Shown: positions 7,561-50,678, counted from the first letter of the stretch. The stretch: 64,000 nt of DNA from a virus (IMGVR_UViG_3300032893_000012:1-64000), one strand, 5' to 3'. Notes: generated from the sequence alone by a model not told the origin. Numbers and translations are program-made.

Positions 7561-8858
7561 GTGAGTACCGTCAATCTCTCAGAGGCTCGAGTTACCGCCG
7601 TGTACGCAAGCCTCTTCGTGTTCTCGTTGGAGTAGTCAGGTCGCCAATCCGCGACGACGACCGCGTGTTTAAATTGCGATCCTTGGCTCTTATGCACAGT
7701 CATCGCATACCCGAAATCATACAGCTTTCCAGCTCCTCCCATCGAGTGCACCTGAATCCCCGCTTTCTTCAGATCCTCGACCGACTCAAACGGTCTAGCG
7801 CGATGAAACTGATCTCGACAGATCTCTTGATCTGTTGCCGGTAGCCCCTCGTCCGGAAATTCCAGTCGAGTCTTCATGAGCCACCACTCGTCTTTGAACG
7901 GAGACGTCGCCTCTTCAGTAACGAGCCCGCGCATCCCGTTGAAAATCGGAGCGTGGTTCTTGAGCGCCACGAGCGGCTCTCCGACCTGCGGCGGCTTGCC
8001 GGCGTACCCGAGGTGCTCGCGAACGGTTTTGTTCACGTGCACCCGCGTGGCGTTACGCCAACACAGGACTGCGGCATCGAGCTTCTCGCGCGAGAGTAAC
8101 GCAGCGAGTGACGGATGCGTCATGTCTTGGGTGCTTCTGAACCGAAGCTGATCACCGTCGGCGAGCTCGCGCGCTAGGCGTCCTTCCTCGCGCAGGATGC
8201 GCGACAGTTGAATGATCGGGGAGCCTTCGGCTTGCCGGTGGATTTTTTCGAGACACAGCATCGGCCGCGTGACCAGTGAGCCATCGCCCATCACCGGCGG
8301 AAGCTGTCCGTGATCGCCGACAGCCATGATGCGAACGCCGTGGGCGTTGAGGTCTTCGACAATGGCGCCCGAAACCATGGAGGCCTCGTCGAGAACGACC
8401 AGATCGTAGTTCCGATCGAGTTCCTCGCGCTTCTTCCAGCCGAGGAGCTCCTCGGTGGTGTCGTCGATGACCGCGCGATAGAGGAGCCGGTGAATAGTGC
8501 CGCAGAACGGTTTTCGAGACTCGTCGCTGCCGCGGGAGTAAAAGAGGTGCCCCCACGGACCGGCAAGCTTGTCTTCGTCGTCTGTGCAGGCTCGGTTGGT
8601 GGTCGCAACGCCGCACGCAGTGAGCTTTCGTTGGAGGACGCTCGAGGCGCGGCCGGTGAAACAGATGTATGCGATGCGGAGATCGGTCATCTCGGAAGCA
8701 AAGAGACCAAGAAGCGTGCTCTTGCCACTTCCAGCGACCCCGCCGATCGTAAGTAGGTTGCTCGCCGGCGTTCGCACCCAGTCGAGCATCGACTCGTAGA
8801 CGCGACGCTGGTCGGGGGAGAGGTCGGAGCGTGTGAGGCGGTGATCGGAATTGGTCAT
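7557..8858 (-). CDS. Dda/RecD-like SF1B helicase
   Basis: GVAGSGKS Walker A, TIHRLLY, LDEASMV, GDHGQLPPV, HRQA, YAMTVHKSQGSQF, YTAVTRA. Confidence 0.93.
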   Translation of the reverse strand: MTNSDHRLTRSDLSPDQRRVYESMLDWVRTPASNLLTIGGVAGSGKSTLLGLFASEMTDLRIAYICFTGRASSVLQRKLTACGVATTNRACTDDEDKLAGPWGHLFYSRGSDESRKPFCGTIHRLLYRAVIDDTTEELLGWKKREELDRNYDLVVLDEASMVSGAIVEDLNAHGVRIMAVGDHGQLPPVMGDGSLVTRPMLCLEKIHRQAEGSPIIQLSRILREEGRLARELADGDQLRFRSTQDMTHPSLAALLSREKLDAAVLCWRNATRVHVNKTVREHLGYAGKPPQVGEPLVALKNHAPIFNGMRGLVTEEATSPFKDEWWLMKTRLEFPDEGLPATDQEICRDQFHRARPFESVEDLKKAGIQVHSMGGAGKLYDFGYAMTVHKSQGSQFKHAVVVADWRPDYSNENTKRLAYTAVTRASERLTVLT

Positions 8859-9070
8859 TTTCTAAATACTCGACCTGCTCGTCTCAAGGCCGACCACGGG
8901 TCTTTGTATTTGTTGCCCCAGTGCCCATACGCTCCTCCTCCGGCATATTTTGGTAATGGAATTCCAGACAGGAATGTAAGCCCGCAGATTAGGTCTTCCA
9001 GTCTGTCTTTGAAGACCCGCGGATGCAGGCGTCGGTCGGAGGGGGAGAGGTCGGAGCGCTTCACCCCCAC
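8855..9070 (-). CDS. hypothetical protein
   Basis: overlaps both neighbours; N-terminus resembles the helicase N-terminus. Confidence 0.4.
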   Translation of the reverse strand: MGVKRSDLSPSDRRLHPRVFKDRLEDLICGLTFLSGIPLPKYAGGGAYGHWGNKYKDPWSALRRAGRVFRK

Positions 9071-9529: not shown

Positions 9530-9931
9530 TTACGGTTTTTCCAGGATGAGAGTGAGACTGACGTGCTGCTCGAAGCGCCCGTTCGCGATGCGAATCAGAT
9601 ATGGCGTATGGGCGCGCAGCATCGGGCGAACGGACTCGAGTCCAGAAAGAATCGACGCGCCCTCGGAAGCGTCTAGCTCGTGTCCTACCACGACCGAATC
9701 TAGCGGCACCGTAAACACGAGCTGGCATTTTCGCCAGGCGCCAACCGGTTCCGAAGTGGTCATCGTGATCTGGTTCGGTTGGTTCTCCAGCGAATCATTG
9801 CGCGCCCTCGCAACCACGTTTCCGTATCCATGCGCCCGCAGCGCCTCGACGACGTCGTGTCCCGTTAGGTCATCCATCTTGAGCGCCATGGTGGCGAGCG
9901 TGACGAGCATGTCGTGTTCGGTGAGTTTCAC
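9530..9931 (-). CDS. hypothetical protein
   Basis: GTGA overlap with the upstream gene. Confidence 0.55.
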   Translation of the reverse strand: MKLTEHDMLVTLATMALKMDDLTGHDVVEALRAHGYGNVVARARNDSLENQPNQITMTTSEPVGAWRKCQLVFTVPLDSVVVGHELDASEGASILSGLESVRPMLRAHTPYLIRIANGRFEQHVSLTLILEKP

Positions 9932-17902: not shown

Positions 17903-19336
17903 ATGACGATCAAAAACCCGAGCAAGTATCAGCTGGCCCTCTTTGAGAACGTTGCCAACGGAACCGGACATACCGTCGTTAAGGCAGTGGCCGGAGCTGG
18001 GAAGACCAGTTCAATTGTCGAGGCGCTTACTTATGTCCCACATGGTCTTCGAACCCTCTTCGTCGCCTTCAATAAGTCGATTGCGGAAGAGCTCAAGAAG
18101 CGCGCGCCGCACGGAGTCGAAGTCTCAACCCTTCATTCCTACGGCCTCAAGGTTATCACGCGGTCACTGGGGCGCCTACGCATCGACTCGCATCGAGTGG
18201 ACGACATGGTCAGCGCCATGCATGGCAAAGATTCGAAGACATGGGACATGCGTCGCGATCTCGCGAAAACCGTTTCGCTCGCAAAGGGGCAGCTCGCCAG
18301 CGACGAAGCCGATATCGACGCGATCATCGATACCTTCGGCATCGAGTCGGCTCGGAACGGATCTCGCGCTGCGTTCATCCAGGATGTGCTCAAGATCCTG
18401 ATCCAATGCACCGACGTCTCCGACGGCCGGATCGATTTCGATGACATGATCTGGCTTCCGGTCGTGTTGAACCTTTCTCAACCGAAGTACGACCGGGTGT
18501 TCGTCGACGAGACCCAAGACCTGAACGCAGCACAGATCGAGATGACGCTGCGCGCGGTCAACGACAATGGTCGGATCTGCGCCGTGGGCGACCCTAGGCA
18601 GGCCATCTACGGGTTCCGCGGGGCGGATTCGGCAGCCGTCGACAACGTGGTGAGCCGGCTCAAGGCGACCGTGCTGCCGCTCAGCGTCTGCTACCGCTGC
18701 TGCAAGGCGGTCATCCGGGAGGCGCAGGAAGTGGTTCCGGAGATCGAGTACGCGCCGGACGCAGACGAGGGATCGGTCAGCGAGGTAACCGTATCGGAGA
18801 TGAAGAAGAACGCGCGCGCCGGAGATTTCATCCTGAGCCGAACGAACGCGCCTCTCATCTCGCTCTGTATGTACTTCCTCAAGAACGGACGCCCTGCGAG
18901 TATTCAGGGGCGCGACGTCGGTGCCTCGCTCGCGGCATTCGTCAAGAAGAGTAAGGCGCCGACCGTGGGAGCCCTTCGCGACTACGTCGAGGAGTGGCGC
19001 GGGATCGAGGTTGCCAGGCTCGCCGCCAAACACCGCGATACGCAAGCTGTCGACGATCGCGCGGAGTGCATTCTGGCGCTCAGTGAGGACGCGATGACCG
19101 TGTCCGACGTGCTCGAGAGCATCGAGTCGCTGTTTGCCGACAAGGACGAGCACTCGAGGATCGTACTGTCGTCGACGCACAAGGCGAAGGGACTCGAGCG
19201 AGATCGGGTGTGGATGCTCAACAGCACGTACCGGAGACGACCGGGGGCGGAAGAGGACAACCTGACCTATGTGGCTATTACACGGGCTCGGAAGACTCTC
19301 TTCATTGTCGAGGGTAGCGTGGGGCAGAAAAAGTGA
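17903..19336 (+). CDS. UvrD/Rep-like SF1A helicase
   Basis: AVAGAGKT, VAFNK, STLHS, VDETQD, VGDPRQAIYGFRGA, STHKAKGLE, YVAITRA; AGGAG RBS. Confidence 0.93.
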   Translation: MTIKNPSKYQLALFENVANGTGHTVVKAVAGAGKTSSIVEALTYVPHGLRTLFVAFNKSIAEELKKRAPHGVEVSTLHSYGLKVITRSLGRLRIDSHRVDDMVSAMHGKDSKTWDMRRDLAKTVSLAKGQLASDEADIDAIIDTFGIESARNGSRAAFIQDVLKILIQCTDVSDGRIDFDDMIWLPVVLNLSQPKYDRVFVDETQDLNAAQIEMTLRAVNDNGRICAVGDPRQAIYGFRGADSAAVDNVVSRLKATVLPLSVCYRCCKAVIREAQEVVPEIEYAPDADEGSVSEVTVSEMKKNARAGDFILSRTNAPLISLCMYFLKNGRPASIQGRDVGASLAAFVKKSKAPTVGALRDYVEEWRGIEVARLAAKHRDTQAVDDRAECILALSEDAMTVSDVLESIESLFADKDEHSRIVLSSTHKAKGLERDRVWMLNSTYRRRPGAEEDNLTYVAITRARKTLFIVEGSVGQKK

Positions 19337-19773
19337 CCTCCCGCTTCGTCCAAGTCCCCGCCTCTGCCATCCGCGAACGGTTGGTGGGGGCGGGCTTCGA
19401 GCTGATGGAAGCTACAAGCGATGAGGAGGTGTACCTCAGGGTGCACGACAAGGACGAGCGGTACGCAATCAAGGTGTACTCGTCGATCCAACACGGAGAG
19501 TCTGCCGTCCGCGAGTGCGGGGCCGACGCTATCCGAGTGGTAGCTCTGTTTCAGCCTCGAGATCAAATCTACCCGATATTCAAGTCCGCGCGTGTGTACC
19601 GAACCGGCAGCGTTGAGGCTGTACTCGATCGCGTGATCGAGCGCGCTAGGGAGGCGTATGCGCGGTGTAACGAGCATCGAAAGAAAAATTCTGGGACGCC
19701 CGAGCGGAACCAGCAGGCGAAAACCCCGTCCCCCGGGAACACGTCTACTGGTTCCACTCGGGCGCCGAGATAG
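19333..19773 (+). CDS. hypothetical protein
   Basis: GTGA overlap. Confidence 0.6.
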   Translation: MTSRFVQVPASAIRERLVGAGFELMEATSDEEVYLRVHDKDERYAIKVYSSIQHGESAVRECGADAIRVVALFQPRDQIYPIFKSARVYRTGSVEAVLDRVIERAREAYARCNEHRKKNSGTPERNQQAKTPSPGNTSTGSTRAPR

Positions 19774-19776
19774 CCA

Positions 19777-20106
19777 ATGTTCAGGCGTGACACATCGAAA
19801 AAATGTGAGCGCTGTGGAGCTCCAGGAGAATCCTATCCAATGGTTGGACTTCCGTGCGTGTTCGTTTTTAGGGTCGATTTCGATCGAATGGAAAATCATT
19901 CTCCAAAGGAGACCAGGCTTCGGGCTATCTTCGCCGGGGAGACTTGTGAGGCAGCCCTGATTCAGTCAGAGCGTTTCATCGCGCTGGAACGCACGGAAAA
20001 TCAGGAATACAAAGGTTACGACGGCAAGACCTATCCCTATTGGTATGTCGAGCATGGCGTTATCGGCGAGCCGATCGATAAAACAAGGACGATCATTGGG
20101 ATATGA
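19777..20106 (+). CDS. hypothetical protein
   Basis: operon packing. Confidence 0.5.
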   Translation: MFRRDTSKKCERCGAPGESYPMVGLPCVFVFRVDFDRMENHSPKETRLRAIFAGETCEAALIQSERFIALERTENQEYKGYDGKTYPYWYVEHGVIGEPIDKTRTIIGI

Positions 20107-20128
20107 CTGTTTTCATAGGAAAAAAGAA

Positions 20129-20353
20129 ATGAGGACTGGCGGCCGCATGTCGATCGAACTCTCCGGCGCGGAAGCGCGGGTGCTCTTCAACGAGATCGGT
20201 GACATTCCGAAACTTCTTGTGGGACCAAAGCTCCTCGAGCTCTACGTTCGACTCAGTAATATGCTCGATTTGAACGAAGAGGCTCACACTAAGAGCAGAA
20301 AACTAAAGTCGCCGGTGTCGGGGAATTCAGGGTCCTCGGCGCCGGCGCAGTAA
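20129..20353 (+). CDS. hypothetical protein
   Basis: operon packing; start uncertain. Confidence 0.4.
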   Translation: MRTGGRMSIELSGAEARVLFNEIGDIPKLLVGPKLLELYVRLSNMLDLNEEAHTKSRKLKSPVSGNSGSSAPAQ

Positions 20354-20369
20354 CTCTACTGGAGGAAAA

Positions 20370-21365
20370 ATGGCATACGCTTGTCGAATTCTAGCTGACT
20401 CGATCTCTCCCGCTGGCCACCGACTCACGAGCTTTGAAGTTACATTTCCGCGTATTGTGTTGGCCGAATTCAATACTCATTGCATGCTATCGCGCAACAG
20501 CGCCTCGAGTCGTGCCATCCCAGTCGCCAAGCGAATCGATGCTGTCGAGACTGATCCATTCGTTCCGGAATCGTTTGGTCGAAACCAGAAGGGTATGCAA
20601 CCTGGCGAACCTCTCGACAGCAAAGATGCGGCGGCAGCGCAGCTGGATTGGCTAGACGCTCGTGATGAGTGCATCCTTCGGGCGTCGAGTCTTGCTTCGC
20701 GTGGCGTGCATAAGCAGTACGCAAACCGCCTCCTCGAGCCATTTTCGTGGCATACGGCCGTGATCACGGCGACCGAATGGGACAACTTCGAACACCTTCG
20801 GTGCAATCCGATGGCGCAGGGTGAGTTCCAGAAAGCGGCGCAGCTCATGATGGCGGCGCGGACAAACAGCGAACCGCGCGCGCTCAACTGTAATGAGTGG
20901 CACTTGCCGTACGTCGAGCCTGACGCAGAGGTGTTTACTCTCAATTCGGTTGGATTGGATCCTTGGAAAGTCTCTGTCGGACGTTGCGCTCGTGTTTCGT
21001 ACCTCACTCAAAATGGCGTACGAGACCCAGCCGAGGATGTAGCGCTCGCTGATCGTCTCCTCGAAAATGCTCACATGAGCCCTTTCGAGCACGTTGCGCG
21101 ACCGATGACCGATACCGAGCTCGCTATCACCAGATCGTTCGATGTTGCGGTAAGCGATGGACCTATCTTGCGATACGGGTGTCCGCCGTCCATTCCGGCT
21201 CCGCGCGTATGCGGCGCAGCATGCGACGATCCATCGAAAAATCACATCTCTTTCGTGCGTGGCCCGCTCCATTACTCAGGCAAATTGAATGGCTGGATCT
21301 CTAGACGCGCGTTCGTGCATGGTGAGCACGACATCCTCGGGTATCGAAGTCAAGTTCACGGGTGA
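20370..21365 (+). CDS. thyX: FAD-dependent thymidylate synthase (phage-type ThyX)
   Basis: RIVLAEFNTHCMLSRNSASSRAIP, HKQYANRLLEPF, RCARVSY, HMSPFEHVA; GGAGG RBS. Confidence 0.88.
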   Translation: MAYACRILADSISPAGHRLTSFEVTFPRIVLAEFNTHCMLSRNSASSRAIPVAKRIDAVETDPFVPESFGRNQKGMQPGEPLDSKDAAAAQLDWLDARDECILRASSLASRGVHKQYANRLLEPFSWHTAVITATEWDNFEHLRCNPMAQGEFQKAAQLMMAARTNSEPRALNCNEWHLPYVEPDAEVFTLNSVGLDPWKVSVGRCARVSYLTQNGVRDPAEDVALADRLLENAHMSPFEHVARPMTDTELAITRSFDVAVSDGPILRYGCPPSIPAPRVCGAACDDPSKNHISFVRGPLHYSGKLNGWISRRAFVHGEHDILGYRSQVHG

Positions 21366-21369
21366 AAAC

Positions 21370-23025
21370 ATGTTGACACTTTCTAGACCAGCATATTTGG
21401 AAACGTCAGAGATCTCGCTCTCTCAGGAGTGCTCGTCCGCACGCTGGACGTACCATCGTCTGCTCGATTTCGAGCAGGAACACCAACGAGTACTCGACGC
21501 CGCAGCGGAAACCATCGCGCCAGGGATCGTGCGCATCGGACGCATCGTGGCACGCCTGGCGAGACGAGCACGTCGAGCAGAACACACGTCCGCAGGAGCG
21601 TGGTGTCCGAACCCGCGACCTGAGCTCGCTGACCGACTCCGTGAAAAGCTCGTGGAGCTACGGGTACAACGCAATGCAGATCCGCGATGGAAAGTCGCTC
21701 TCGGATGGGCTGACGAGGAGGTTGGTGAGTCGAAAGCTGTTCGACGACGGCGTGCGAAATCGCCCGACAAGGTCAAGCGTCGCAAGGGTGAGACTGACGA
21801 AGCATTCGCGAAACGGTTCGAGCTTCTCACGCACGACGAGACCGATGAACACTACGGGGAGAAGCTCACCAGCCAACCGCGCAGGACGCGACGTGAGGCA
21901 TATCGCACAGAGCTCTACGCGACTCGGCGCATTTATTGGGGAACATGGAACGCTTTGGTGCGGAGCGTCGATCAGGCTCGGAAGGATGTCCTGAAAGCGC
22001 GCAAGGTTGGCATGCCGGCGGATTTGCGGCGTCCCAAGTACCGCGATCCGGTGACGCTCGCGGCCGACAAGGGCGGCTTCAGAATCGTGGAACGAGGGTC
22101 CGTTTGGTGGACGATCGAACTACGAATCGGCGTCGCGGACGAGTGGGTTCGCTTCCGCGCGAAGTGCGGAACGTGGCACGACGTACCGAGCGGCGCGAAC
22201 ATCCGTACATTGAAGCTCACCCGCCGGAAGGATGGCGAGCGTTGGGCCTACTCGGTCAGCATGGCGATCGAGATGGAGAAGCAATCGATCCCGCGCGCGG
22301 AGTCACGAATGGTGGCGTTCGACTGGGGCCACCGCGAACATGGACATCCGCGCTGGCGAGAAGGTATTCGTGTCTTCACATGGCTCGGAGACGACGGCGC
22401 AATCGGTGAGGTTCTCATTCCAGCGGAATGTCGGGATGCGCTCGACGAGATCGACTCACTGAAGAGCCGTGTAGATACGGCCTACGACGCGCGCCGCAAG
22501 ACACTCGGACTTTCGCACAAGAATCGATTTTTGTATCGACGCGAACTGATGCGCTCGGGCGTCCGCACTGCCGAGGAGACTGATTGGCTTCGGTGGGAGA
22601 TGCGATACGAGAGAAGGATCGCTGCGCGACGAAAGCGCATCATGAATGTGCGGCGCGAGCTCTATCTGCGAACGGTGCGAGATCTTCGATCTCGTTACGC
22701 GATCTTCGCCTTCGAGGATGAGAGCGTTGCTCAAATCAAGGTAAAGCAGAAAGATGAAGAAATGAAGCGCCGACAGCGGAGCACCAGGGACATCTCGGCG
22801 CGTTACGAGTTCGTGAGTCTGTGCGAGCGGTTCGGTGCCGAGATTTTGACCGTACCTGCTCGCAACACTACGAAGGAGTGTCCGAACTGCGGCGTGCTCG
22901 CGGAAAATGGCCCGGAATTGTTGATCGCGTGTCCTGGATGTGGGGTCGTTCGTGACAAAGATCGCGGTGCTGCGAGGGTCATTCTCGCTCGGGCGACGGA
23001 GGCGCTCGCAAACCGTGCTGCATGA
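21370..23025 (+). CDS. compact type V CRISPR effector (TnpB-derived, Cas12m/V-U1-like), 551 aa
   Basis: RuvC-I VAFDWG, RuvC-II FAFEDE, Zn finger TTKECPNCG...ACPGCG, RuvC-III RDKDRGAARVI; YWGTWN motif; array begins 31 nt after the stop; probable ATG at 21370, just after thyX. Confidence 0.88.
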   Translation: MLTLSRPAYLETSEISLSQECSSARWTYHRLLDFEQEHQRVLDAAAETIAPGIVRIGRIVARLARRARRAEHTSAGAWCPNPRPELADRLREKLVELRVQRNADPRWKVALGWADEEVGESKAVRRRRAKSPDKVKRRKGETDEAFAKRFELLTHDETDEHYGEKLTSQPRRTRREAYRTELYATRRIYWGTWNALVRSVDQARKDVLKARKVGMPADLRRPKYRDPVTLAADKGGFRIVERGSVWWTIELRIGVADEWVRFRAKCGTWHDVPSGANIRTLKLTRRKDGERWAYSVSMAIEMEKQSIPRAESRMVAFDWGHREHGHPRWREGIRVFTWLGDDGAIGEVLIPAECRDALDEIDSLKSRVDTAYDARRKTLGLSHKNRFLYRRELMRSGVRTAEETDWLRWEMRYERRIAARRKRIMNVRRELYLRTVRDLRSRYAIFAFEDESVAQIKVKQKDEEMKRRQRSTRDISARYEFVSLCERFGAEILTVPARNTTKECPNCGVLAENGPELLIACPGCGVVRDKDRGAARVILARATEALANRAA

Positions 23026-23056
23026 TAGCGAAATCACTAGAGGTCTCTTGGGGCCT

Positions 23057-25596
23057 CTATCGACAGCTGCGTGGAGCTTCGAACACCACGACTCCGCCTC
23101 CGAGCGCCGCGCCGCCGTCGCGGCGGCGGCTATCGACAGCTGCGTGGAGCTTCGAACACCACGACGGAGCGCGTCGTCCACCGTGCACCGAGTATGGCAC
23201 CTATCGACAGCTGCGTGGGGCTTCGAACACCACGACAAGTAGCGCCGCTGGCCGGCGGCCGATGCCGATATCATGCTCTCAACAGCTGCGTGGAGCTTCG
23301 AACACCACGACCCGAAGAGCCGACATGCGCGGCCGACGAGCCCGCTACTCTCACAGCCGCGTGGGGCTTCGAATGCCACGACGTCGAGTTCGGCGGACCA
23401 AGGAGGATCGCGCCCGTGGCATTCAACAGCCGCACGGGGCTTCGAGTGCCGTGACGGTGCGCTCGGGGTCGGCATCTGTCTCAACAGCTGCGTGGGGCTT
23501 CGAGTACCACGACGAGGAGTGGTCTCGGCTCATTCCCCACGCCATTGTCTCTCAACAGCTGCGTGGAGCTTCGAGTACCACGACCAGGAGCACGTCGCTC
23601 TAACTCAACAGCTGCGTGGAGCTTCGAATGCCACGACGGAGACGACGAGGAGGCCAATTTTCTCTCAACAGCTGCGTGGAGCTTCGAAAGCCACGACAAG
23701 CCGCAGGTGCAAAGCCACGCTGGCTTGCACGACTCTCAACAGCTGCGTGGGGCTTCGAATGCCACGACCACTGGTGACCCACGGCGAGCGGATAGAGCCG
23801 CTGCGGTCTCTCAACAGCTACGTGGAGCTTCGAGTACCACGACGTGACGCGGGCGGTGTGGCAACAGCCGCGCAGAGCTTCGAATACTGCGACGGGGTCG
23901 AACCCAATGTCCTCCTCAATAAGCTGCGTGGAGCTTCGAATGCCGCGACTACGGGCAGATTCTGGACCTTCAGTGGCCGCGCGGGGCTTCGGGTACCGCG
24001 ACAACGCGATGCATCGTTGGTTTTGCCTTTCCGGCTATCGAAAGCTGCGTAGAGCTTCGAATGCTACGATCAACTCAACTCAGTCAGTCTGATCTATCAA
24101 CAGCTGCATGGAGCTTCGAATGCCGTGATGCAAGCTTGAAGAGCGGACCAATACTGCGACTCGGTGATTCGAGCCACAGCCGCGTGAGGCTTCTAATGTC
24201 ACGACCTCGGCGCTATGCCGTCTCTGCCACTAATAGCTCTCAAATAGCCGTGCTAGGCTTCGAATACAGCAACCAGGACGAAAAGTCCGTGAAGATTTTC
24301 GCGATGTCAATCAACATCAGTATTGGACTTCCTCTCAACAGCCGCGTAGGGCTTCGAATATCTCGACATCTGAAACCTCTCGCGCCAGTTAAAAACAGCT
24401 GTGTGGAGCTTCGAATGCCACGACTCGGTCAGCCACGTCAGTCTTTGGACCCGGATCTAATCAACAGCCGTACGGGGCTTCGAGTGCCGTGGACTACAGA
24501 ACGGAGCGCGTCACGCATTCCGCGACGAGCTCATCAACAGCCGCGCGGGGCTTCGAGTGCCGCGACTTGCTGCCAAGGAGCTATCAACAGCTGCGTGGAG
24601 CTTCGAATGCCACGACACGATGCACCGCCCTTCCCACGCGACCGCGCGACGAGCTCTCAACAGCTACGTGGAGCTTCGAGTACCACGACGCGGCGGGTTT
24701 CCGCGGAACGTTTCCACTTTCGGCACATCTCAACAGCTGCGTGGAGCTTCGAGTACCACGACAGCCGCTCCGTGTAACCGTCCTTCCGGTTCGCGAACTC
24801 TCAACAGCTATGTGGAGCTTCGAATGCCACGACCAGCTGCCCTCGCGCGGACGGATTACCGTCGAGGCCGGCTCTCAACAGCTGCGTGGGGCTATATCAA
24901 CAGAGAGCTTCGAATGCCGCGACTACGGGCAGATTCTGGACCTCAATAGCCGCGTGGGGCTTCGAAAATCACGACCGCGAGCTGATCGCAGCCATCCGAG
25001 ATCAACAGCTGTGTGGAGCTTCGAAAGCCACGACTGCGCGTCGCACACTGGTACCCGTCTCTCAACAGCTGCGCGGAGCTTCGAGTGCCGCGACCACGAG
25101 CGTCACCCCGAAGGCGTGTCTGTCGTGCACCTATCAACAGCTGCGTGGGGCTTCGAGTACCACGACGGCGCGTGGACGGAACGAAGAGATCCCGTGATGC
25201 AGACAGATTCTCAACAGCTGCGTGGGGCTTCGAGTACCACGACATCTCATCTGCGCCGCCCCCCATCGAATTCTCAACAGCTGCGTGGGGCTTCGAGTAC
25301 CACGACACGGCGGCGTCCCATCCCCTGCTATAGAGGCGCGCGTGCTTCTCAACAGCTGCGTGGGGCTTCGAAAGCCACGACAACCGGCGGCCTCTTTCTT
25401 TTGTACCCGGCAGGCCTGACGCCTATCAACAGCTACGTGGGGCTTCGAAAGCCACGACCTAGCGCACGCCCCCCATCTGCGCTTGAAGCGCCGTGCTATC
25501 AACAGCTACGTTTCGAATGCCGCGACCAGGTCCTCCGCGATGGCGTCGCGCCGCTCGGTCCTATCGATAGCTGTGTGGAGCTTCGAATACCACAAC
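23057..25596 (+). CRISPR. CRISPR array, about 39 repeat units (some partial), 36-nt consensus CT(C/A)TCAACAGCTGCGTGG(A/G)GCTTCGA(A/G)T(G/A)CCACGAC
   Basis: repeats traced by eye from 23057-23092 to 25561-25596 with mostly unique spacers of about 14-58 nt; G.U-compatible variants indicate plus-strand transcription. Confidence 0.95.
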
Positions 25597-25628
25597 TCAG
25601 GGTTCCTTATTTCCTTCCCAGCAAAATA

Positions 25629-26456
25629 ATGAAAAATCAGAATCCAATCGCACACCCATTCCTGAAGTTCGCCGGCGGAAAGACGCAGCTCTTACCTGAG
25701 ATTCTTCCGCGCCTCCCCGCGAAGATTAAAACCTACTACGAACCGTTTCTCGGTGGCGGCGCGGTCTTTTTCGCGTTGGCTGCGGAGAAACGGTTCGAGC
25801 GTGCAGTACTCTCGGACGCAAACAAAGAGCTCATGAATTCGTACGCTGCTATAGCGGCTTCGTTGGATCGCATTATCTCATTGCTACGAGAACACGAGTC
25901 CGCGCACTCCAAGACATACTTTTACGAAGTGCGAGCCTCAGAAATGAAGCTAGCGATATCGAAAGCAGCGAGATTCATCTACTTGAATCGCACCTGCTTC
26001 AACGGTCTTTATCGCGTCAACAAGTCAGGCAAGTTCAACGTACCTTTTGGGGACCACAAGAATCCAACCATCTGCGACGAAGAGAACCTGCGTGCTGTAT
26101 CGGCGGCTCTAGAGAATGCCCACGTCTCGGCATGCGATTTCGAAGAAGCGATTTGGATTGCACGAAAAGGCGACGCGATATACTTCGATCCGCCGTACGT
26201 ACCCATCTCTGCAACATCTAACTTCGCTGCCTACACAAAAGATGGTTTCGGCCCCGACGAGCAAGAACGTCTCCGTCACGTCGCAGAGAAGCTCAGCACG
26301 AAAGGCGTGTTCGTTCTGCTATCGAACTCCGACACTCCGTTCGTGCGTGAGCTATACCAAGGGTTCGTCATCGAGAAGGTGCGCGCTCGGCGAGCGATCA
26401 ACTCAAAAGGAGACAAGCGCGGTGATGTTGGCGAATTATTGATTCGAGGTAGATGA
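25629..26456 (+). CDS. dam: Dam-family (D12 class) DNA adenine methyltransferase
   Basis: FLKFAGGK, YYEPFLGGGAV, YLNRTCFNGLYRVN, YFDPPY, LSNS; real start ATG 25629. Confidence 0.93.
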   Translation: MKNQNPIAHPFLKFAGGKTQLLPEILPRLPAKIKTYYEPFLGGGAVFFALAAEKRFERAVLSDANKELMNSYAAIAASLDRIISLLREHESAHSKTYFYEVRASEMKLAISKAARFIYLNRTCFNGLYRVNKSGKFNVPFGDHKNPTICDEENLRAVSAALENAHVSACDFEEAIWIARKGDAIYFDPPYVPISATSNFAAYTKDGFGPDEQERLRHVAEKLSTKGVFVLLSNSDTPFVRELYQGFVIEKVRARRAINSKGDKRGDVGELLIRGR

Positions 26457-26488
26457 GTATCCTGATTTAGGAGCCCTAGTTACATAGC

Positions 26489-26842
26489 ATGTCGTCTTTC
26501 AATATTTCTGGACTCATGCTCTTACCGCAACACAGGAAGAAACTAGAAATACTTGTTGCGGCAATCGCGCATCATCGCGTTCATGGTAGGTTTCCTACCC
26601 GCAGTATGGTTGCGCGCTTTCTAAGCGACGTCACAGGTAAAAAACGTAATCTAGATGACGTTTCACGTCTTGTTCACACTATGGATCGATGGAATGTGAT
26701 TTCCGTGACTACTCCGGTAGGAGAACGACTTCCACTGATCCACGTGTTAAGTCTCGGTTTTGATACGCTCACGGATCTTCTCGGGTATGATCCGCGTACG
26801 GAAGGAAATTCATGTCCCAAAATGCTGCCTCTAGAGGAATAG
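26489..26842 (+). CDS. hypothetical protein, possibly winged-helix
   Basis: HGRFPTRSMVARFL segment resembles a wHTH start. Confidence 0.45.
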   Translation: MSSFNISGLMLLPQHRKKLEILVAAIAHHRVHGRFPTRSMVARFLSDVTGKKRNLDDVSRLVHTMDRWNVISVTTPVGERLPLIHVLSLGFDTLTDLLGYDPRTEGNSCPKMLPLEE

Positions 26843-27090
26843 CACCTCTAATGGAAGAGCGTCGCAAGCTCGCCGAAGAGAATATTCGTCTGCGCGAACG
26901 TTGCGAGCGACTTCGCAAGGCGATAATTTTAACCGACGCCGATCACTGTCGCTGTGGAGCGTGCGGCGGGGAATGGCAAGCCGGCGCCACAGAATCGCAC
27001 TCATCCGGTTGCGTAGCTGCTTCAGACGAGCCTCGAGCGTCGAGTTCGACCCAGAACTCCCGCGGGGCGGCATCGAAGCGCAGGCGGTAA
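26812..27090 (+). CDS. hypothetical protein
   Basis: short coiled coil plus Cys/His cluster. Confidence 0.45.
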   Translation: MSQNAASRGIAPLMEERRKLAEENIRLRERCERLRKAIILTDADHCRCGACGGEWQAGATESHSSGCVAASDEPRASSSTQNSRGAASKRRR

Positions 27091-27118
27091 GCTGCTTCGA
27101 GCATCGCGGCTAACAGCA

Positions 27119-28594
27119 TCATAGAAATGTGATCGGCTGTGCCGAAACAGGCATTGCAAGCGCGAGCGAGAGCGTTCGCGTAAAGAGCCCGCTCAGGAAC
27201 GTCGGTGCTGGTACCGTCCCAGGTGGGAGTGGCGCATTCGGCGGTGGTCCAGCTGTTTCCGGTGCTACGAACTGTCCAAGCGCAGCCGAGAGCTGATCGT
27301 TCGTAGGTGGTACGGCGCTAAGGATCAAAAAGGCTGCAGTCGCCTTCTTATTGACCACGGATCCGATATTGCCTTTCGATCCGGCGTCGCTGTTGGTGCC
27401 AACATTGTTGGTTCCAGTGTTGTTGTTATCGATTCCGGTGAATGGGGCAGTAAGTTTCACGAGACTCGGTGTAACTGAATCGACGACATACGTCACTTCG
27501 ACCACGCCAAAGGCTGTGTTGTTCTGAAGCTGTTCGGCGAATTGAATAATACTCCCGGGAGAGAGTACGCCCGTCTGGTCGACTGTGGTTGGCACGTTCG
27601 TCGAACCTGTTGTGACGATGAAGTCGCCAGCGAGCTGCGGTTTGCTGTTCGACTGTTGAGCGATTGAAAAATACGACGGTGGTAGATATGCCAGATGTTG
27701 CGCAATGAGCAACTGTGCCTGGTCCGTGAGCGGACCTCTGAAATTATCTGGCGTCTTACTCGCTAGCGTTATCGACGGGAGATCCTCTGATAGTTCGACG
27801 AGCGTGATTTGGCCGACGCTGCTCCCGAAACTTCCGGCGGCAAGAATCTGCATTCCGTCGATCTGCGCGATGTCGACACTGCCAACAGCAAGAATCAACT
27901 GTACTGGACGTTTGCCGGTAAGCAACGCCGCCACGTTGAACGGGCCCCCGCCAGTTGAGTCGTGATAGGTCAGGATCACGGTATGTGCACCGGGACCTGC
28001 GGAGATAGCTGGCGACGTTGCGACGGCAGCTGTGTCCAAGGGTGACGTCGAATAGATTGCTGCCTTTGTCACCGGAGCAACAACTTCTTTGAATGCTCCC
28101 GTGTTACCCATCGTTCCTGTGTACGCAGACGAAAGAACGATCTGCGTCGAACTGAGAACTGATGCGACTGTGTAGGAGACACCGGGTTGCGAAAGAAACT
28201 GGATGGTATCGCCAGGATTGATCGACGGTAACTGCGTCGCACTCGTCGCGACTCCGAAAAGTCCTGTTGTCGGAAAGAACGATCCGGGAAGCGTAACCGT
28301 TCGACGTAGCGGATACGGAAGCACCGGCGGACTCGAGGTACGCGGATGGCATGGGAACGGAAACGGCGCAAAGGCTGTGGGACTCATATTGAGCGTCAAC
28401 GTTCGAGTCGCGACGTTCCCGAATGTAGTGGTCTGGTCAGTCGCAACGGTGAGCCCGAAGAGCTGTCCGAGCACCGGATCGGTGTGGATGTTCGTGTAGA
28501 GCGGCACGGCGGCGAGCTTCGTTGCAGCCCCGGCGGCTCCGAGAGAGGTTCCAGCGGCGTCGACGGCCCATGCGAGGATGATTTGGTCCGGCAT
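27119..28594 (-). CDS. Thr/Ser/Pro-rich, beta-rich putative virion protein with an internal duplication
   Basis: 491 aa; PGDTIQF..Q..YTVASV..IVLSSAYTG recurs as PGSIIQF..Q..YVVDSV..VKLTAPFTG. Confidence 0.7.
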   Translation of the reverse strand: MPDQIILAWAVDAAGTSLGAAGAATKLAAVPLYTNIHTDPVLGQLFGLTVATDQTTTFGNVATRTLTLNMSPTAFAPFPFPCHPRTSSPPVLPYPLRRTVTLPGSFFPTTGLFGVATSATQLPSINPGDTIQFLSQPGVSYTVASVLSSTQIVLSSAYTGTMGNTGAFKEVVAPVTKAAIYSTSPLDTAAVATSPAISAGPGAHTVILTYHDSTGGGPFNVAALLTGKRPVQLILAVGSVDIAQIDGMQILAAGSFGSSVGQITLVELSEDLPSITLASKTPDNFRGPLTDQAQLLIAQHLAYLPPSYFSIAQQSNSKPQLAGDFIVTTGSTNVPTTVDQTGVLSPGSIIQFAEQLQNNTAFGVVEVTYVVDSVTPSLVKLTAPFTGIDNNNTGTNNVGTNSDAGSKGNIGSVVNKKATAAFLILSAVPPTNDQLSAALGQFVAPETAGPPPNAPLPPGTVPAPTFLSGLFTRTLSLALAMPVSAQPITFL

Positions 28595-33789: not shown

Positions 33790-34346
33790 GCGAACCTTCG
33801 CACTGGTAGTGTTCGGTAGGCTACGTATCCAGCGGTCGCTGCGAGACCAAGAGCAGCGACCACCACAAGCGCATCAGATCCTTTAGTGCGCTGTGGCGCG
33901 ATCACTTGTGTTTCAGGCTGCACGTCTTGAAGTCTAGCAATCAACTTATTCAAAGATGGGTACGTGCTACCGAGATACGAATTCAAAGCGTTCTGCCACG
34001 CGGTTACGTCGCCTGAGTCTGCCGCCACAAGGCCGCCGTATCGATCCAGAGCCTTCAGCATCGAATACGCACCGGATCTCGCGTCTGAGAATGCGCGGAA
34101 TTTCAGTGGCGAGGAAACTTTTGGATTATAAAACCACGATACATCGTCGCGCGACGTGGTCACATTTCCGACGTTCCAGTTGTACATCGATTGCCACTCA
34201 GCTGTTTCGTTTGCGCTGAGCGCTAGTGGCCAAAGCCACGAGCTTTTTGCCGGAAGATCGCGAGATCTCAGCGTACGATACGCCTCGACAATAGCGCCGG
34301 CGACGTGCGGCGCATTACTCGGCGTTAGAGCGGCGGCGACCTGCAT
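33786..34346 (-). CDS. putative lysozyme-fold (GH73-like) hydrolase with C-terminal TM anchor
   Basis: SANETAEWQSMYNWNVGNV...FRAFSD; C-terminal hydrophobic helix plus basic tail. Confidence 0.55.
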   Translation of the reverse strand: MQVAAALTPSNAPHVAGAIVEAYRTLRSRDLPAKSSWLWPLALSANETAEWQSMYNWNVGNVTTSRDDVSWFYNPKVSSPLKFRAFSDARSGAYSMLKALDRYGGLVAADSGDVTAWQNALNSYLGSTYPSLNKLIARLQDVQPETQVIAPQRTKGSDALVVVAALGLAATAGYVAYRTLPVRRFA

Positions 34347-34468
34347 TAGCGCGAAGGGGTACGACGCGGTTCCGGATCTGGACCTGGCGCGACGGAAGGC
34401 GAACTCGTATCGAGTTTCGTGCTGCGTACGACTTCAAGCTTCGGTGGTTCGTATTTTTCTTTCGTCAT
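34346..34468 (-). CDS. 40-aa small protein absent from the ORF track
   Basis: MTKEKYEPPKLEVVRSTKLDTSSPSVAPGPDPEPRRTPSR*; ATGA overlap upstream and TAATG overlap downstream. Confidence 0.55.
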   Translation of the reverse strand: MTKEKYEPPKLEVVRSTKLDTSSPSVAPGPDPEPRRTPSR

Positions 34469-35904
34469 GGCAACGCGACGACCTCCGAGAGGTTACTGGT
34501 GTTCGCGAACGGAAGCGTCGCCCACGTCTTGTCGGTTCCGGCGATGCGAGCATCGACGGTGGAGCCGGTAAGGGAGGGCAAAATATCGTACTGAAATGCG
34601 GCCATCGAGTAGGTTCGAATCCCGAAGGCGTACCCGCTCGTTGGCCCCCAGAGACGCGCGTTGTTGTGCTGGTAGCTTGCACATCCTGGGTCTACCTCCC
34701 ACGCGACGCCGCCTGAGGCGGTCGCTCCTGCTTGAACCTGCGCGCCGTTCGCTTCGATGAAGCCAGCATCAGTCTGGAGCACGCGGCCGCCGTCGAGCGT
34801 GATCGCGTTCTGCATTTGCAGGGTCGCCGAACCAAAGACGTTCAGCGTCGACTGAAAGACGCAGTCGGCCATTCCCAGGGTCGAATTCAATCCAACTGTC
34901 ATGCTCGACTTGAAGATGGATTGATCAACGTGGCAGGTCGCGTTCACGAAGCCAGCGAAGCAATTCGAGTCGAAGGAACATCCGACGAACTGAACGCCGG
35001 AAACGGTCGACGGATCCGACTGAGGACGCCAATACTGGAACGAGGCGAAACCGCTCGAGGGATCGCTCGTGAAGTTCATGTCCTTCCATAGGAAGCGTCC
35101 AGCGCCTTTGACGCGGAGATCCATGCGCCCCTGAAACGTCGTCTGGAGAGTATCGACGACGTAGGAATCACCCGGGGACGGGTTTACTCCGGTCGCGATC
35201 ACATTGCCCGGCGGCGCGTTCGACGTGAAGCGCGACCACCCGGTCACCTGGGCGACGGTACCGGTCGTACCCCCCTGAGTGTAAGTGATGGCCCCGCTCG
35301 TGGCGCCGCTCGTTGTCCGGAGACGTTGCCCACGTGAGAACGAGCCCGCACCGTCTGTTGCCGTTCCACGGGTGTTCGAGCCTGAAGCAGTTGGCGTGAG
35401 CGCCGAGAAGGTCGACGCGACGCTTGAACTGACGGTCCCCTGGATCGTGACGAGGATGCCGGTTCCGATGTGCAAGTCGAGCGGTCCGAGATCGGTCAGT
35501 GTTCCTGCGGCGACAGTGACAACGACGTTCGAGGAGACGTCGTTCCAGCGCATCCGATTTCCCCATTCGACGAGTGTCTTGAGCGGCGCACCGAGCGTCA
35601 TGCCGCTGTTCCGGTCGTCGCCCGAGACAGGGTCGATGAACCATGTCGTGACGTACTGGGCGAGCTGGTTTCGAATGTATTGCCGGATAGCTAAGGCCCC
35701 TGCGGGCGCCGCCGGTGCGATGACGTTCAGCCCGTCCGCGGCGGGAGTTGGGGAAGGTGCGACGAGGTAGAGATACTGGTCGTTCACTACGCCGACGGTT
35801 ACCACCGTGAGATCGTTCATCGTCGTCAGATCCGCTGCAGCGAGTGCCTGCGGCGACGCGAACGCGGTCTGGGTGATCTGGCTCTGACGAACCTTCTCGG
35901 TCAT
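34465..35904 (-). CDS. putative spike/receptor-binding beta-helix protein
   Basis: WFIDPVSGDDRNSG..APLKT motif; paralogous to the C-terminal domain of the collagen-like protein. Confidence 0.7.
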   Translation of the reverse strand: MTEKVRQSQITQTAFASPQALAAADLTTMNDLTVVTVGVVNDQYLYLVAPSPTPAADGLNVIAPAAPAGALAIRQYIRNQLAQYVTTWFIDPVSGDDRNSGMTLGAPLKTLVEWGNRMRWNDVSSNVVVTVAAGTLTDLGPLDLHIGTGILVTIQGTVSSSVASTFSALTPTASGSNTRGTATDGAGSFSRGQRLRTTSGATSGAITYTQGGTTGTVAQVTGWSRFTSNAPPGNVIATGVNPSPGDSYVVDTLQTTFQGRMDLRVKGAGRFLWKDMNFTSDPSSGFASFQYWRPQSDPSTVSGVQFVGCSFDSNCFAGFVNATCHVDQSIFKSSMTVGLNSTLGMADCVFQSTLNVFGSATLQMQNAITLDGGRVLQTDAGFIEANGAQVQAGATASGGVAWEVDPGCASYQHNNARLWGPTSGYAFGIRTYSMAAFQYDILPSLTGSTVDARIAGTDKTWATLPFANTSNLSEVVALP

Positions 35905-35914
35905 CGCGATGTTC

Positions 35915-36406
35915 CTACGGTGACTGGTTTACAGTGAGCTGCTGAATGAAAAGTTTCGTGCCGCTCGCGAGAATGAGTCCGCTTGCGCCGATCATGTTCG
36001 CCTGTGCGAAGATGACCGTCGGAAACCCGGCTGGCGTCCCGGAGTAAGGGATCTCATTTCCGAGTCGATTCGCGTTCAGGGTCATGGTGAGGACGGAGGT
36101 GCCCGAGTGAAGATCCGTCACCGAGACGTCAGAGGTCGTCGTCGATGAGCTCGCCAGAGTGACCTGGGTCTCGCTCGGCTGTACGTTCAGAGCAAACTGA
36201 AGCTGGACGAAGTAGAATCCGTACTGGCACGCGAATGCCGGGGAGGCCCCGAAGCTCCCCCCTGGGAAAGCGACGACGCCGAACGAGTCGGAGATAAACT
36301 CGAGCGAGCTGAAGGGGATGATCAACGGAACGCCGCTCGAGAAGGCGGTGTTCGTCGCTAGACCGAGTCTTGCGAAGGGGCGACTGCCGTAGGTTCGATT
36401 GCTCAC
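35915..36406 (-). CDS. beta-rich putative virion protein
   Basis: 163 aa, operon packing. Confidence 0.6.
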   Translation of the reverse strand: MSNRTYGSRPFARLGLATNTAFSSGVPLIIPFSSLEFISDSFGVVAFPGGSFGASPAFACQYGFYFVQLQFALNVQPSETQVTLASSSTTTSDVSVTDLHSGTSVLTMTLNANRLGNEIPYSGTPAGFPTVIFAQANMIGASGLILASGTKLFIQQLTVNQSP

Positions 36407-48947: not shown

Positions 48948-50678
48948 TCAGGTGCCGGGCAGGTACGGCAGCTCCTCGCGACTTTCTCCGAGGAAAGCGG
49001 AGTGACCGGCGAGCGGATCGCCTACGCACCCGCACGACGGATCCGAATGCGGTCGCGCCTGTGGCCCGGGACCGACGTCTGAGGGCGGTCCTGGTTGCCA
49101 ATCCTGGCTCACGCCAGGTTGACCCGGATTACCGCGTCCGTACGGCGCTCCGGTCCCCATGGACTGCGCCACGGTCGGGTAGTCGCTTCCGGGACCACCG
49201 GTTCCCCACGTGTTTTGCACGGTGGGGTACTGGGAGTCCTGAATGCCGGTGGCGTTTCGCAGCGCCTGGCCAGCATCCGGGTAAGGCGACTCCGCGGCGA
49301 GCGCGAACGGACCCACGTCGGCTCCGGAGAGCACGCCAGCCACGGCAGTCACCTGCTTCTGCTGCATGTTCAGGGATGCCGCGACCTCCGCTGGATAGAG
49401 GCGCACGATGATGCTCTTCTGGAGCGACGGAGGACTCGTGTCCTTCGGTGTGAGCATCGGCATGAGGAAGTTGTTCCAGAACATCCGGAACAGATTCACT
49501 CCGGCGCCGAGCGCCAGACCATCCAATGCCGCTTTCCCTGTTCGATTGCGGACGGCATACGCCGAGAGCAACGCTGGCGCGGCAGCGACCCCGACTCCGG
49601 CGCCGATGCGCATGAGGTTGGGACGCATGGCCACGTTCAACGTGTTTGCGAGCGTGCCCGAACCATCGCTCGTAAACTTGTCGGTCGGCTTCGGATCTGT
49701 CGAGGACGGATTGTACGTAGCGAGCAAGCGATCGATGCCGTCCGCTAGAATGAAACCGACGCCGCTGGTGACAACCGCCACCGCGAAATCAGCAACACCC
49801 ATTCCGCTTCCGCCTCCGCTAGATGCGTGCATACGCCGACTGTGACGCCGACGAGAATGACGACGACGAGGCGATTCCATCACGTGCGCTCGGCGCCGGC
49901 TGTGGCGCCTGCGACGACGACGCGGAGCTTCGCTCACCACCGCTTCTCGAGTGGTTCGCCTACGCGCGTGCCGGCGCGTCTTCTTGCGACGCCAACCCTT
50001 CTTGGCTGCCTTCCGGTGACCGGAGGGGTTACCGCGCCACGCCTGCACGTTGCTATGCACGCGACGCCGATGCCGGCGACGTCGCCACTTCTGCTGCGGC
50101 GTGAGCACGCGCTTGCGCGTTCGACGACTTGCGCGGGCCTGTGTCTTGCGCGCTCGGCGACGACGCCTCCGCTTGGGGGCTGCCACCGATGTAGCTGCAC
50201 GAACGCGCCGGCGACGCGCGCGCTTGGGCGCACTCTTCTTCTTGCTAGAGCGACGACGACGACGGGGTGAGGATACTTTCGCAGTTCTGGCCATGCTTTC
50301 CTCTCGAGCGACTACGGCGCGGATGCCTTTGCCGAACGGGACGGTCCGTTTGACTTTGGACCCTTTCGGATCGAATTGACGGATGCGGATGTACTGGTCG
50401 GTGACGTCCACCTTCCCGTACCGGTAGCCGTGAGACCTAGCCCACGCTTTCGCCTTGCTCTCGGTCCACCCGGCGCTGCGATGAAACAGCAACGATTGGA
50501 CAGACATCGATTTCGACTCGTGCGGCGCAACGGCGTCCGTACGCGGGTATGCGATCGGAGATGGCCTGTTTCGCGCGACATCACTACGGCGTGATTCGCT
50601 GAGATCGGCCAGTCGATCGTCGTAAAGACCCATGTCACGATGCACTGACAGGCTCTCAGCGCAACCTATTACGGTCAA
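48948..50678 (-). CDS. Arg-rich protamine-like protein with membrane segments
   Basis: VQSLLF..WTESKAKAW..HG..IRIRQFDP domain, about 155-aa poly-Arg region (49820-50294), hydrophobic helices, Pro/Gly tail; start uncertain (50678, 50633 or 50507). Confidence 0.8.
   Translation of the reverse strand: MTVIGCAESLSVHRDMGLYDDRLADLSESRRSDVARNRPSPIAYPRTDAVAPHESKSMSVQSLLFHRSAGWTESKAKAWARSHGYRYGKVDVTDQYIRIRQFDPKGSKVKRTVPFGKGIRAVVAREESMARTAKVSSPRRRRRSSKKKSAPKRARRRRVRAATSVAAPKRRRRRRARKTQARASRRTRKRVLTPQQKWRRRRHRRRVHSNVQAWRGNPSGHRKAAKKGWRRKKTRRHARRRTTREAVVSEAPRRRRRRHSRRRAHVMESPRRRHSRRRHSRRMHASSGGGSGMGVADFAVAVVTSGVGFILADGIDRLLATYNPSSTDPKPTDKFTSDGSGTLANTLNVAMRPNLMRIGAGVGVAAAPALLSAYAVRNRTGKAALDGLALGAGVNLFRMFWNNFLMPMLTPKDTSPPSLQKSIIVRLYPAEVAASLNMQQKQVTAVAGVLSGADVGPFALAAESPYPDAGQALRNATGIQDSQYPTVQNTWGTGGPGSDYPTVAQSMGTGAPYGRGNPGQPGVSQDWQPGPPSDVGPGPQARPHSDPSCGCVGDPLAGHSAFLGESREELPYLPGT

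Follow-up and report, generated by a model that had tools for sequence, protein, structure and literature searches.

A virus-carried cassette of a compact Cas12m-like effector with an intact RuvC triad and a heterogeneous CRISPR array

Type V-M loci, whose effector is Cas12m (formerly V-U1), typically consist of a CRISPR array with no other cas genes, cas1 and cas2 included, and Altae-Tran et al. describe a "gradual inactivation" of the RuvC site across the type (PMC10691335). Four clades of the Cas12m family have been described; DED, NED or DND stands at the catalytic positions in two of them, clades 3 and 4, and Omura et al. proposed that DNA hydrolysis is possible in these two; conversion of the HDD triad of Cas12m2 to DED did not regain cutting (PMC10442227). 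In 2024 Bigelyte et al. assayed four D-E-D (Asp-Glu-Asp) variants beside HDD and NDD ones, and all variants bound double-stranded DNA (dsDNA) in a manner dependent on the protospacer-adjacent motif (PAM) while none cleaved it (PMC11013384). A phage-borne member, MvCas12m of myxophage MV-1 (D305/E463/D555, 610 residues, 8 spacers, one consensus repeat), appears in a September 2026 preprint that claims the first phage Cas12m and assigns the host to Polyangiales (bioRxiv 10.64898/2026.09.14.751636).

The locus described here lies in IMGVR_UViG_3300032893_000012, a 109,321-bp IMG/VR virus record that CheckV rates complete (completeness 100%) and whose first 64 kb form the window, that is, the whole stretch of 64,000 nucleotides that was analysed. 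It is a cassette of one cas12m-like effector gene (21370..23025, + strand, 551 residues) and one CRISPR array (23057..25596, + strand), and the effector belongs to the Cas12m group. Systems of this kind have been described before, as have D-E-D variants and one member borne by a phage, and current understanding is not overturned; the new elements are the sub-clade to which the effector belongs, the movement of the cassette among phages and the make-up of its array.

The effector and its RuvC triad

The open reading frame (ORF) spans 21289..23025 (+). Homologues begin at the ATG at 21370 (MLTLSRPA...), and for this reason the protein is given a length of 551 residues. All of the motifs quoted in a preliminary description of the sequence (VAFDWG, FAFEDE, CPNC..CPGC, RDKDRGAARVI and YWGTWN...KVGMPADLR) are present in it. 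The Cas12m-like identity proposed there is sound, because four lines of evidence agree: the top-scoring hidden Markov model (HMM), the solved sequences nearest to the protein, its predicted fold, and the stem and GAC register of the repeat. Among defence-system HMMs the best is PADLOC Cas12u1, the old name of Cas12m (119 bits, 5.6e-35), with the Cas12f-labelled PADLOC model close behind (111 bits, 1.9e-32); Pfam recognises only the C-terminal Cas12f1-like_TNB zinc ribbon (7.7e-9). A single-sequence search of solved proteins returns first UnCas12m4a (23vu, 5.8e-18) and the Cas12m 23vw, the latter deposited as "CRISPR-associated DNA-binding protein Cas12m". A profile of 41 homologues run against the PDB finds the same two (7.5e-21 for 23vu; 3.9e-19 for 23vw, over nearly the full length) and also matches the N-terminal REC/WED halves of GoCas12m and MmCas12m2 at ~1e-9.

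An AlphaFold2 model built on the homologue alignment (mean predicted local distance difference test score, pLDDT, of 88) places Cas12m2 and GoCas12m on top in Foldseek (6e-22 to 9e-21), with solved Cas12f and TnpB far lower at 1e-13 or weaker (Cas12f 1e-13 to 1e-10). By a second structural aligner the Z-scores are tied, at 17.8-18.4 for Cas12m over ~475 of the 551 residues and 18.8 for TnpB over ~340. Since the scores are tied while the aligned lengths differ, the model points to a core that is TnpB-like and added parts that are Cas12m-like. In this model RuvC-I and RuvC-II are separated by two long helices (352-379 and 401-440), and the predicted fold combines the TnpB-like core with a Cas12m-type REC1 and a coiled-coil REC2 insertion. 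The size fits the ~400-550 residues of V-F, whose effectors act as dimers and whose arrays have a tracrRNA with an anti-repeat nearby, and the PADLOC Cas12f model reaches 1.9e-32; yet no anti-repeat was found at >=24/36 matches and the Foldseek matches to Cas12f are weaker. An ordinary IS200/IS605 TnpB, a grouping that the preliminary description had named as one that would speak against its reading, is not what the locus contains: the NCBIfam TnpB model scores 46 bits against a cut-off of 100, the Y1 transposase (Y1_Tnp, tnpA) profile has zero matches across the whole 109,321-bp record, and the array is conserved downstream of the gene among relatives. Profiles for Cas1 and Cas2 likewise have zero matches across the whole record. 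The absence of cas1, cas2 and tnpA noted for the window is thereby borne out; as a peculiarity of the locus, the lack of adaptation genes loses its force, since it is the rule for V-M (PMC10691335).

The catalytic residues are Asp318 in RuvC-I (VAFDWG; 22321..22323, +), Glu449 in RuvC-II (FAFEDE; 22714..22716, +) and Asp531 in RuvC-III (RDKDRGAARVI; 22960..22962, +, codon read directly). They align with the D of IGIDLG, the E of GVEN and the D of HDRDTNAA in 23vu, and with the corresponding residues of AIDLG, VLEE and DQDYNAA in 23vw. The retention of all three, claimed from the single protein, extends to the 41 homologues, in which D318, E449 and D531 are invariant at identities down to ~49%. 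The four cysteines of the CxxC...CxxC zinc ribbon (C504, C507, C521 and C524; 22879..22941, +), in the TNB domain recognised by Pfam, are invariant or nearly so across the same set. DED is found in 115 of the 133 nearest cluster representatives, and the non-canonical triad of MmCas12m2, GoCas12m and PmCas12m (HDD/NDD), absent here, marks clades 1 and 2 and not the whole family.

Does an intact triad mean that the protein cuts DNA? The preliminary description started from the premise that characterised Cas12m proteins have a degenerate RuvC, and it took the intact site to mark a possibly nuclease-active lineage or an intermediate between TnpB and Cas12m. The premise fails, since D-E-D clades are known (PMC10442227) and four D-E-D variants have been assayed (PMC11013384), and the conclusion drawn from it is not supported as stated. 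Because such clades exist, because the four variants did not cut and because the change from HDD to DED was not sufficient, an intact triad is compatible with cutting and not predictive of it.

It is nevertheless possible, as a minority reading, that the same layout harbours an active RNA-guided nuclease that cuts or nicks DNA through D-E-D, like Cas12f, Cas-phi and TnpB. The invariance of D318, E449 and D531, and also of D529, in homologues down to ~49% identity speaks for such an activity, but in Cas12m2 the conserved residues mediate metal-dependent binding of the non-target strand, which offers an alternative reason for their conservation. Omura et al. suggested DNA hydrolysis for clades 3 and 4 (PMC10442227), but dsDNA cleavage was absent in 4/4 of the D-E-D Cas12m variants assayed (PMC11013384), and the converted Cas12m2 remained non-cutting, so that the triad alone is insufficient. 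The structural core is equally near active TnpB (Z 18.8) and Cas12m, and the group occupies a long, fully supported branch apart from other V-M-like proteins, so the Cas12m assay results may not transfer to it. We return to binding, the reading that we prefer, below.

The array and its CRISPR RNA handle

The array comprises 38 units of 36 nt and begins after a 31-nt gap (23026..23056, +) that separates the cas12m stop codon from the first repeat; the preliminary description had the gap right and set the number of units slightly too high, at about 39. The 36-nt repeat consensus ends in ...GCTTCGAATGCCACGAC. A profile of the repeat, run over both strands, finds 36-37 matches within the array against 0-1 over the remaining 107 kb, and therefore the array is far beyond chance. 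Of the 15 related loci in which an array adjoins the gene, most have this repeat family starting 31-35 nt past the gene and in the same orientation.

What is new is how heterogeneous this array is: it is an outlier whose 30-nt repeat cores come in 30 distinct versions, whose spacers measure 14-58 nt (median 35) and which bears duplication scars and compensatory changes in the repeat stem. The arrays of most relatives are homogeneous, with spacers of 35-39 nt. Across the aligned units of the array, the core GCTTC is invariant and the terminal GAC is retained in 31 of 36. Two units are broken. One of them, at 24869-24923, is a hybrid of two half repeats and adjoins the second copy (24905..24943, +) of an exact 39-nt duplication whose first copy lies at 23931..23969 (+; family D7, 100% identity) and consists of half a repeat, the spacer TACGGGCAGATTCTGG and the start of the next repeat; the hybrid beside the duplication looks like a recombination scar. 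The other, at 25496..25531 (+), has an internal deletion that removed the 5' stem arm, matches at 20/36 positions and, judged by its sequence, is probably dead. Two units, at 23858 and 24531, resemble repeat types found in other phages more than they do any unit of their own array. Taken together with the duplication scar, this resemblance suggests that the array has been remodelled by recombination, which is not the same as proof.

Spacer 15, which falls in the array's most degenerate stretch, contains a terminator-like hairpin with a T-rich tail (24002-24019); terminator-like hairpins are no more numerous in the cassette region than expected by chance. Long ORFs that cross the array (e.g. 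23273-24052, and one from 24489 into dam) were dismissed as genes, being a product of stop-free repeats.

In the handle of the CRISPR RNA (crRNA) a 5-bp stem pairs repeat positions 14-18 with 30-34, and within the array 98.9% of its cells are paired, with changes on both sides in 5/5 pairs; none of 500 shuffles (0/500) does as well, and when the register is shifted <=54% of cells pair. For 25 repeat types taken from other loci the stem is paired in 99% of cells, again with double changes in 5/5 pairs. Selection preserves the fold of the handle despite drift in the repeat sequence. The stem, C(-23)..G(-19) against C(-7)..G(-3) and with A(-2) and C(-1) after it, is in the same register as in the published crRNAs of Cas12m2 and PmCas12m. 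A possible second helix (AGC with GCU), which would give a pseudoknot of the PmCas12m type, is invariant, so covariation neither supports nor contradicts it. Transcription of the + strand, that is, in the direction of the gene, would fit the G-U pairs, since these are present only when the + strand is read. As for a trans-activating CRISPR RNA (tracrRNA), no anti-repeat was found on the minus strand of the genome at >=24/36 matches, and no convincing inverted match within 19000-27500.

Could the 38-unit array be a decaying relic, in which the effector may still work and most units no longer serve as useful guides? Decay would be in keeping with 30 cores among 38 units, two broken units, spacers down to 14 nt and a lack of adaptation genes, and with the mostly clean, homogeneous arrays and 35-39 nt spacers of relatives. 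Yet 98.9% stem pairing with compensatory changes in 5/5 pairs, approached by 0/500 shuffles and by none of the shifted registers, is not what a relic would show, nor is a terminal GAC kept in 31 of 36 aligned units with the GCTTC core untouched; moreover, 2.5 kb of dead DNA is unlikely to last in a tightly packed viral genome. For these reasons we hold the relic explanation to be very unlikely.

Relatives, mobility and genomic setting

A word-indexed search finds 131 relatives at 46-76% identity, many of them on contigs of 60-113 kb. An exhaustive profile search finds 30 cluster representatives at 1e-30 or better, below which scores fall sharply to ~118 bits or less and other V-M-like proteins of 550-650 residues are met. 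In the tree the group is monophyletic (support 1.0) on a long stem, and its members are shorter than their neighbours, with a clade median of ~525 residues. Some relatives are in Polyangiaceae and Sorangium metagenome-assembled genomes (MAGs), and among the GTDB species genomes searched only 2 contain one, both of them MAGs (one Sorangium sp., one Acidobacteria bacterium). Three close relatives are on complete IMG/VR virus records of 94 kb (G403), 88 kb (G404) and 71 kb (G405, with terminal repeats); a tblastn search of the protein against 50,697 GenBank phage records gave no match. These data define a new element, a discrete and compact sub-clade with an invariant D-E-D that is found on virus records, on metagenome contigs and in only those two GTDB species genomes. 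Two proteins of a Polyangiaceae MAG in the clade were considered as MvCas12m and dismissed, as their residue spacing differs.

Elsewhere in the clade the gene is accompanied by DNA polymerase A, ParB, an SNF2 helicase, a sliding clamp and numerous orphan genes. How the cassette came to these places can be asked of two records whose effector genes were compared with that of the window (21370-23025). G404 (gene at 66618-68159) has most of its genome in common with the 109-kb virus and contains no thyX, and its cassette lies between ParB and an AAA_24 gene, whereas that of the 109-kb virus lies between thyX and dam. G403 (gene at 34305-35918; 94 kb, 69% GC) has only the effector gene in common with the 109-kb virus, and yet the two effectors are 76% identical, the highest value of all, against 71% for the genome relative G404. 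Because the closest effector is in an unrelated phage and the site differs in a related one, we take these observations as a sign of transfer of the cassette between unrelated phages and of different placement in related ones.

One explanation for such movement is a selfish, TnpB-like homing element, whose nuclease would cut cassette-free relatives during co-infection so that recombination copies the cassette in. The differing sites in related genomes (thyX/dam and ParB/AAA_24), the closer effector in the unrelated G403 and the intact RuvC triad would all be expected of it. However, the spacers match none of the relatives searched (three virus genomes and 18 other loci), would-be empty sites included, no Y1 transposase was found in the record and no recognisable element ends within 19000-27500, and a homing element does not need many different guides. 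We therefore judge homing to be extremely improbable, and consider the cassette to be a mobile gene-and-array pair of the V-M-like kind.

Repeats of the same family are arranged differently in some relatives. In G405 (70,587 bp; L051-L054) the main array of 11 units (23446-24181, +) lies ~28 kb from cas12m, a solitary repeat stands directly 3' of the gene, a 3-unit mini-array follows 2.6 kb downstream and three more solitary repeats are scattered; the sites outside the main array are at 52488, 49736-49888, 69527 and 3814 (-) and at 12444 (+). These solitary repeats could be regulatory guides. On a 2.9-kb contig of a Sorangium sp. MAG (C24, L007), which has no cas12m gene, ten heterogeneous repeats of the family (1055-1558) stand mostly 10-13 nt apart, gaps that are insufficient for guides, and they have the look of an array that has collapsed or degenerated. 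A distant relative (25% identity, C-terminal half) is encoded at 8001-8900 of a 152,857-bp IMG/VR contig (L023), where two identical 33-nt repeats at 9567-9686 end in ...CCGCGAC with a stem layout that matches the array of the 109-kb virus; this locus is a second virus-borne lineage of Cas12m-like kind.

In the window the preliminary placement of the ORF between thyX and dam on one strand is confirmed by Pfam, PHROG and homologue starts. Upstream, a thyX-like thymidylate synthase gene (20370..21365, +; Pfam Thy1 2.6e-11, PHROG 85 thymidylate synthase 4e-57) ends so close that cas12m starts 4 nt past it. Downstream, dam, a D12-class N6-adenine DNA methyltransferase gene (25629..26456, +; Pfam MethyltransfD12 1.2e-66, PHROG 56 1e-75), has its ATG at 25629, 32 nt beyond the last repeat and on the same strand as cas12m. 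The surrounding block also codes for a PD-(D/E)XK nuclease, ParB, an AAA_24 ATPase and a UvrD-type helicase, with an integrase further on, and for this reason the neighbourhood is a replication and nucleotide-metabolism module. The effector gene is present in one copy in the record. The 31-nt gap is too short to hold a recognisable separate leader or promoter; no sigma-70-like promoter was found at 19500-26600, no Rfam family at 19000-27000 and no tRNA gene within the window.

Farther from the cassette, the large ORFs scanned in window 31000-60500 and in the rest of the genome include a 958-residue collagen-repeat protein, a GH16 glycosidase, two GT2 glycosyltransferases, a primase-polymerase, helicases and a weak protein-kinase match, and no terminase, portal, HK97-type capsid or tail family was found among them. 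A 543-residue ORF (50898-52529, -) in a putative structural block has a weak LAGLIDADG_3 match (2e-4, just below the Pfam cut-off) and could represent what is left of a homing endonuclease, or else an insert of the intein kind.

Proposed action and comparison with known systems

What would the guides be directed against? In the virus's own genome spacer matches are of <=14 nt only, which is chance level. Searches of the three related viruses, over their full genomes, and of 18 further related loci yielded repeat-to-repeat matches only, bar one 21-nt match of the GC-rich spacer 1, which was judged chance as its first three guide positions are unmatched. No spacer target was found in 50,697 GenBank phage records or 72,556 plasmids (PLSDB), scanning IMG/VR for exact 22-nt stretches of spacers 2, 4 and 5 brought up no match, and arrays of different loci have no spacers in common. 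Weak matches in 126 of 401 Myxococcota genomes fall nearly all on the two most GC-rich spacers and were set aside as compositional noise.

These searches bear on the suggestion that the guides are programmable repressors of host genes or of virus timing, in the manner of CRISPR interference by TldR or by Cas9 with its small CRISPR-associated RNA (scaRNA). Cas12m is a transcriptional roadblock, the cassette is embedded in a gene block instead of a defence island, and the dispersed solitary repeats of G405, far from the gene, are the layout expected of regulatory guides; however, the 109-kb genome has no solitary repeats outside its array, the spacers find only 14-nt chance matches in it, and the 401 Myxococcota genomes yield only GC-rich chance matches, spread over 126 of them. 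A regulatory role is, in our estimation, quite unlikely here.

We hypothesize instead, giving the idea an even chance, that the virus carries a two-part, type V-M-like cassette of cas12m and array whose guides direct binding and silencing of competing DNA. The cassette would be transcribed from the + strand, probably within a thyX-cas12m-array-dam block as its position suggests; we infer expression with the early genes, as the preliminary description had proposed, only from the place of the cassette in the replication and nucleotide-metabolism block. By analogy with characterised Cas12m, the effector would process the transcript itself, with no tracrRNA, into crRNAs of a ~33 nt repeat handle and a ~17-20 nt guide. 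Each handle folds as a 5-bp stem right before the terminal GAC, as the covariation shows. The complex would then locate PAM-flanked, guide-matching dsDNA and remain bound to it, as do the Cas12m proteins assayed so far, D-E-D ones included, and the bound complex would block transcription or replication of a competitor that shares the host, be it a phage, a plasmid or another element. Upkeep and reshuffling of the array would proceed by recombination, for which the duplication scar, the hybrid repeat and the variants resembling those of other phages are partial evidence, and growth of the array might possibly draw on adaptation enzymes acting in trans. Binding rather than cutting would be the most likely action, because four D-E-D Cas12m proteins bind and do not cleave (PMC11013384) and because the depositors of 23vw named it a DNA-binding protein.

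Several points weigh against this hypothesis. The invariant D318, E449 and D531 would fit a working nuclease too, and the D-E-D Cas12m proteins with assays are distant kin: against the family profile the closest solved ones reach 72-77 bits. As many as thirteen spacers measure <=27 nt, and five of them, at 14-17 nt, only equal or fall short of the ~17 nt guide of characterised Cas12m. No convincing protospacer emerged from any collection searched, and hence neither a target class nor a PAM. The viral status is based on IMG/VR and CheckV labels plus gene content, and no terminase, portal or capsid families were recognised among the scanned ORFs; the complete virus records of relatives and the replication-module neighbour genes count in its favour.

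A bolder combination, which we consider unlikely, is that of a virus-specific, DNA-cutting, compact D-E-D lineage whose arrays have diversified without Cas1-Cas2 by recombination in co-infection, with compensatory divergence protecting long arrays. If this were true, compensatory divergence of the repeats would keep every unit functional and at the same time resist recombinational collapse in a recombination-active genome.

Whichever action applies, the locus indicates that Cas12m-type systems are not confined to chromosomes and plasmids, and that a whole sub-clade appears to move between unrelated phages as a bare gene with its array. The Cas12m proteins employed at present in base and epigenome editing exceed the effectors of this sub-clade in length by ~50-90 residues. 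With their triad untouched, such compact D-E-D effectors offer nature's own test of whether cutting occurs in any Cas12m-type protein, and of which features other than the triad disable it. Thirty repeat variants that serve one protein amount to a natural experiment on which handle positions tolerate change. The locus also suggests that, even where acquisition genes are missing, a long array can be retained and reshuffled.

Among the systems with which the cassette can be compared, Cas-phi (Cas12j) and Cas-lambda (Cas12l) of huge phages are proven nucleases. They too are phage-borne and pair a single small RuvC effector with an array, with no adaptation genes; they use no tracrRNA and are presumed to act against competing elements, but they are different Cas12 lineages (Foldseek 1e-6 to 1e-7, against 1e-22 for Cas12m). 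The TnpB proteins of IS200/IS605 share the WED-RuvC-TNB core (Z 18.8, 340 residues) and the intact D-E-D; they differ in a single omega-RNA that overlaps the 3' end of the gene, where here there is a multi-spacer array and no tnpA in the genome, and they lack the ~135-210 residues that form the Cas12m-like REC parts. MvCas12m is likewise phage-encoded and D-E-D, with an adjacent array; its locus has no cas1, cas2 or cas4 and no tracrRNA, and no spacer targets were found for it either; compared by description, the spacing of its residues (D305/E463/D555, against D318/E449/D531) makes it not the same protein.

The closest match is V-M Cas12m itself (MmCas12m2, 8hhl/8hio; GoCas12m, 8pm4; PmCas12m; the D-E-D variants of Bigelyte et al.; 23vu; 23vw). 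The cassette shares with it the TnpB core with a REC insertion and a zinc-ribbon TNB, one array next to the gene as the only partner among CRISPR components (here by profiles for Cas1 and Cas2, and with no tracrRNA anti-repeat found at >=24/36 matches), and a 36-nt repeat with a 5-bp stem in the same register and a GAC end; the D-E-D triad is that of clades 3 and 4, 23vu and 23vw. It differs in its sequence, with only ~15-19% identity to the solved Cas12m structures, and in its length, at 551 residues against ~580-615. Moreover, V-M Cas12m is borne on chromosomes and plasmids and its arrays are much shorter and far less heterogeneous, whereas the cassette described here is carried by a virus, and its effector belongs to a separate, fully supported clade on a long stem.

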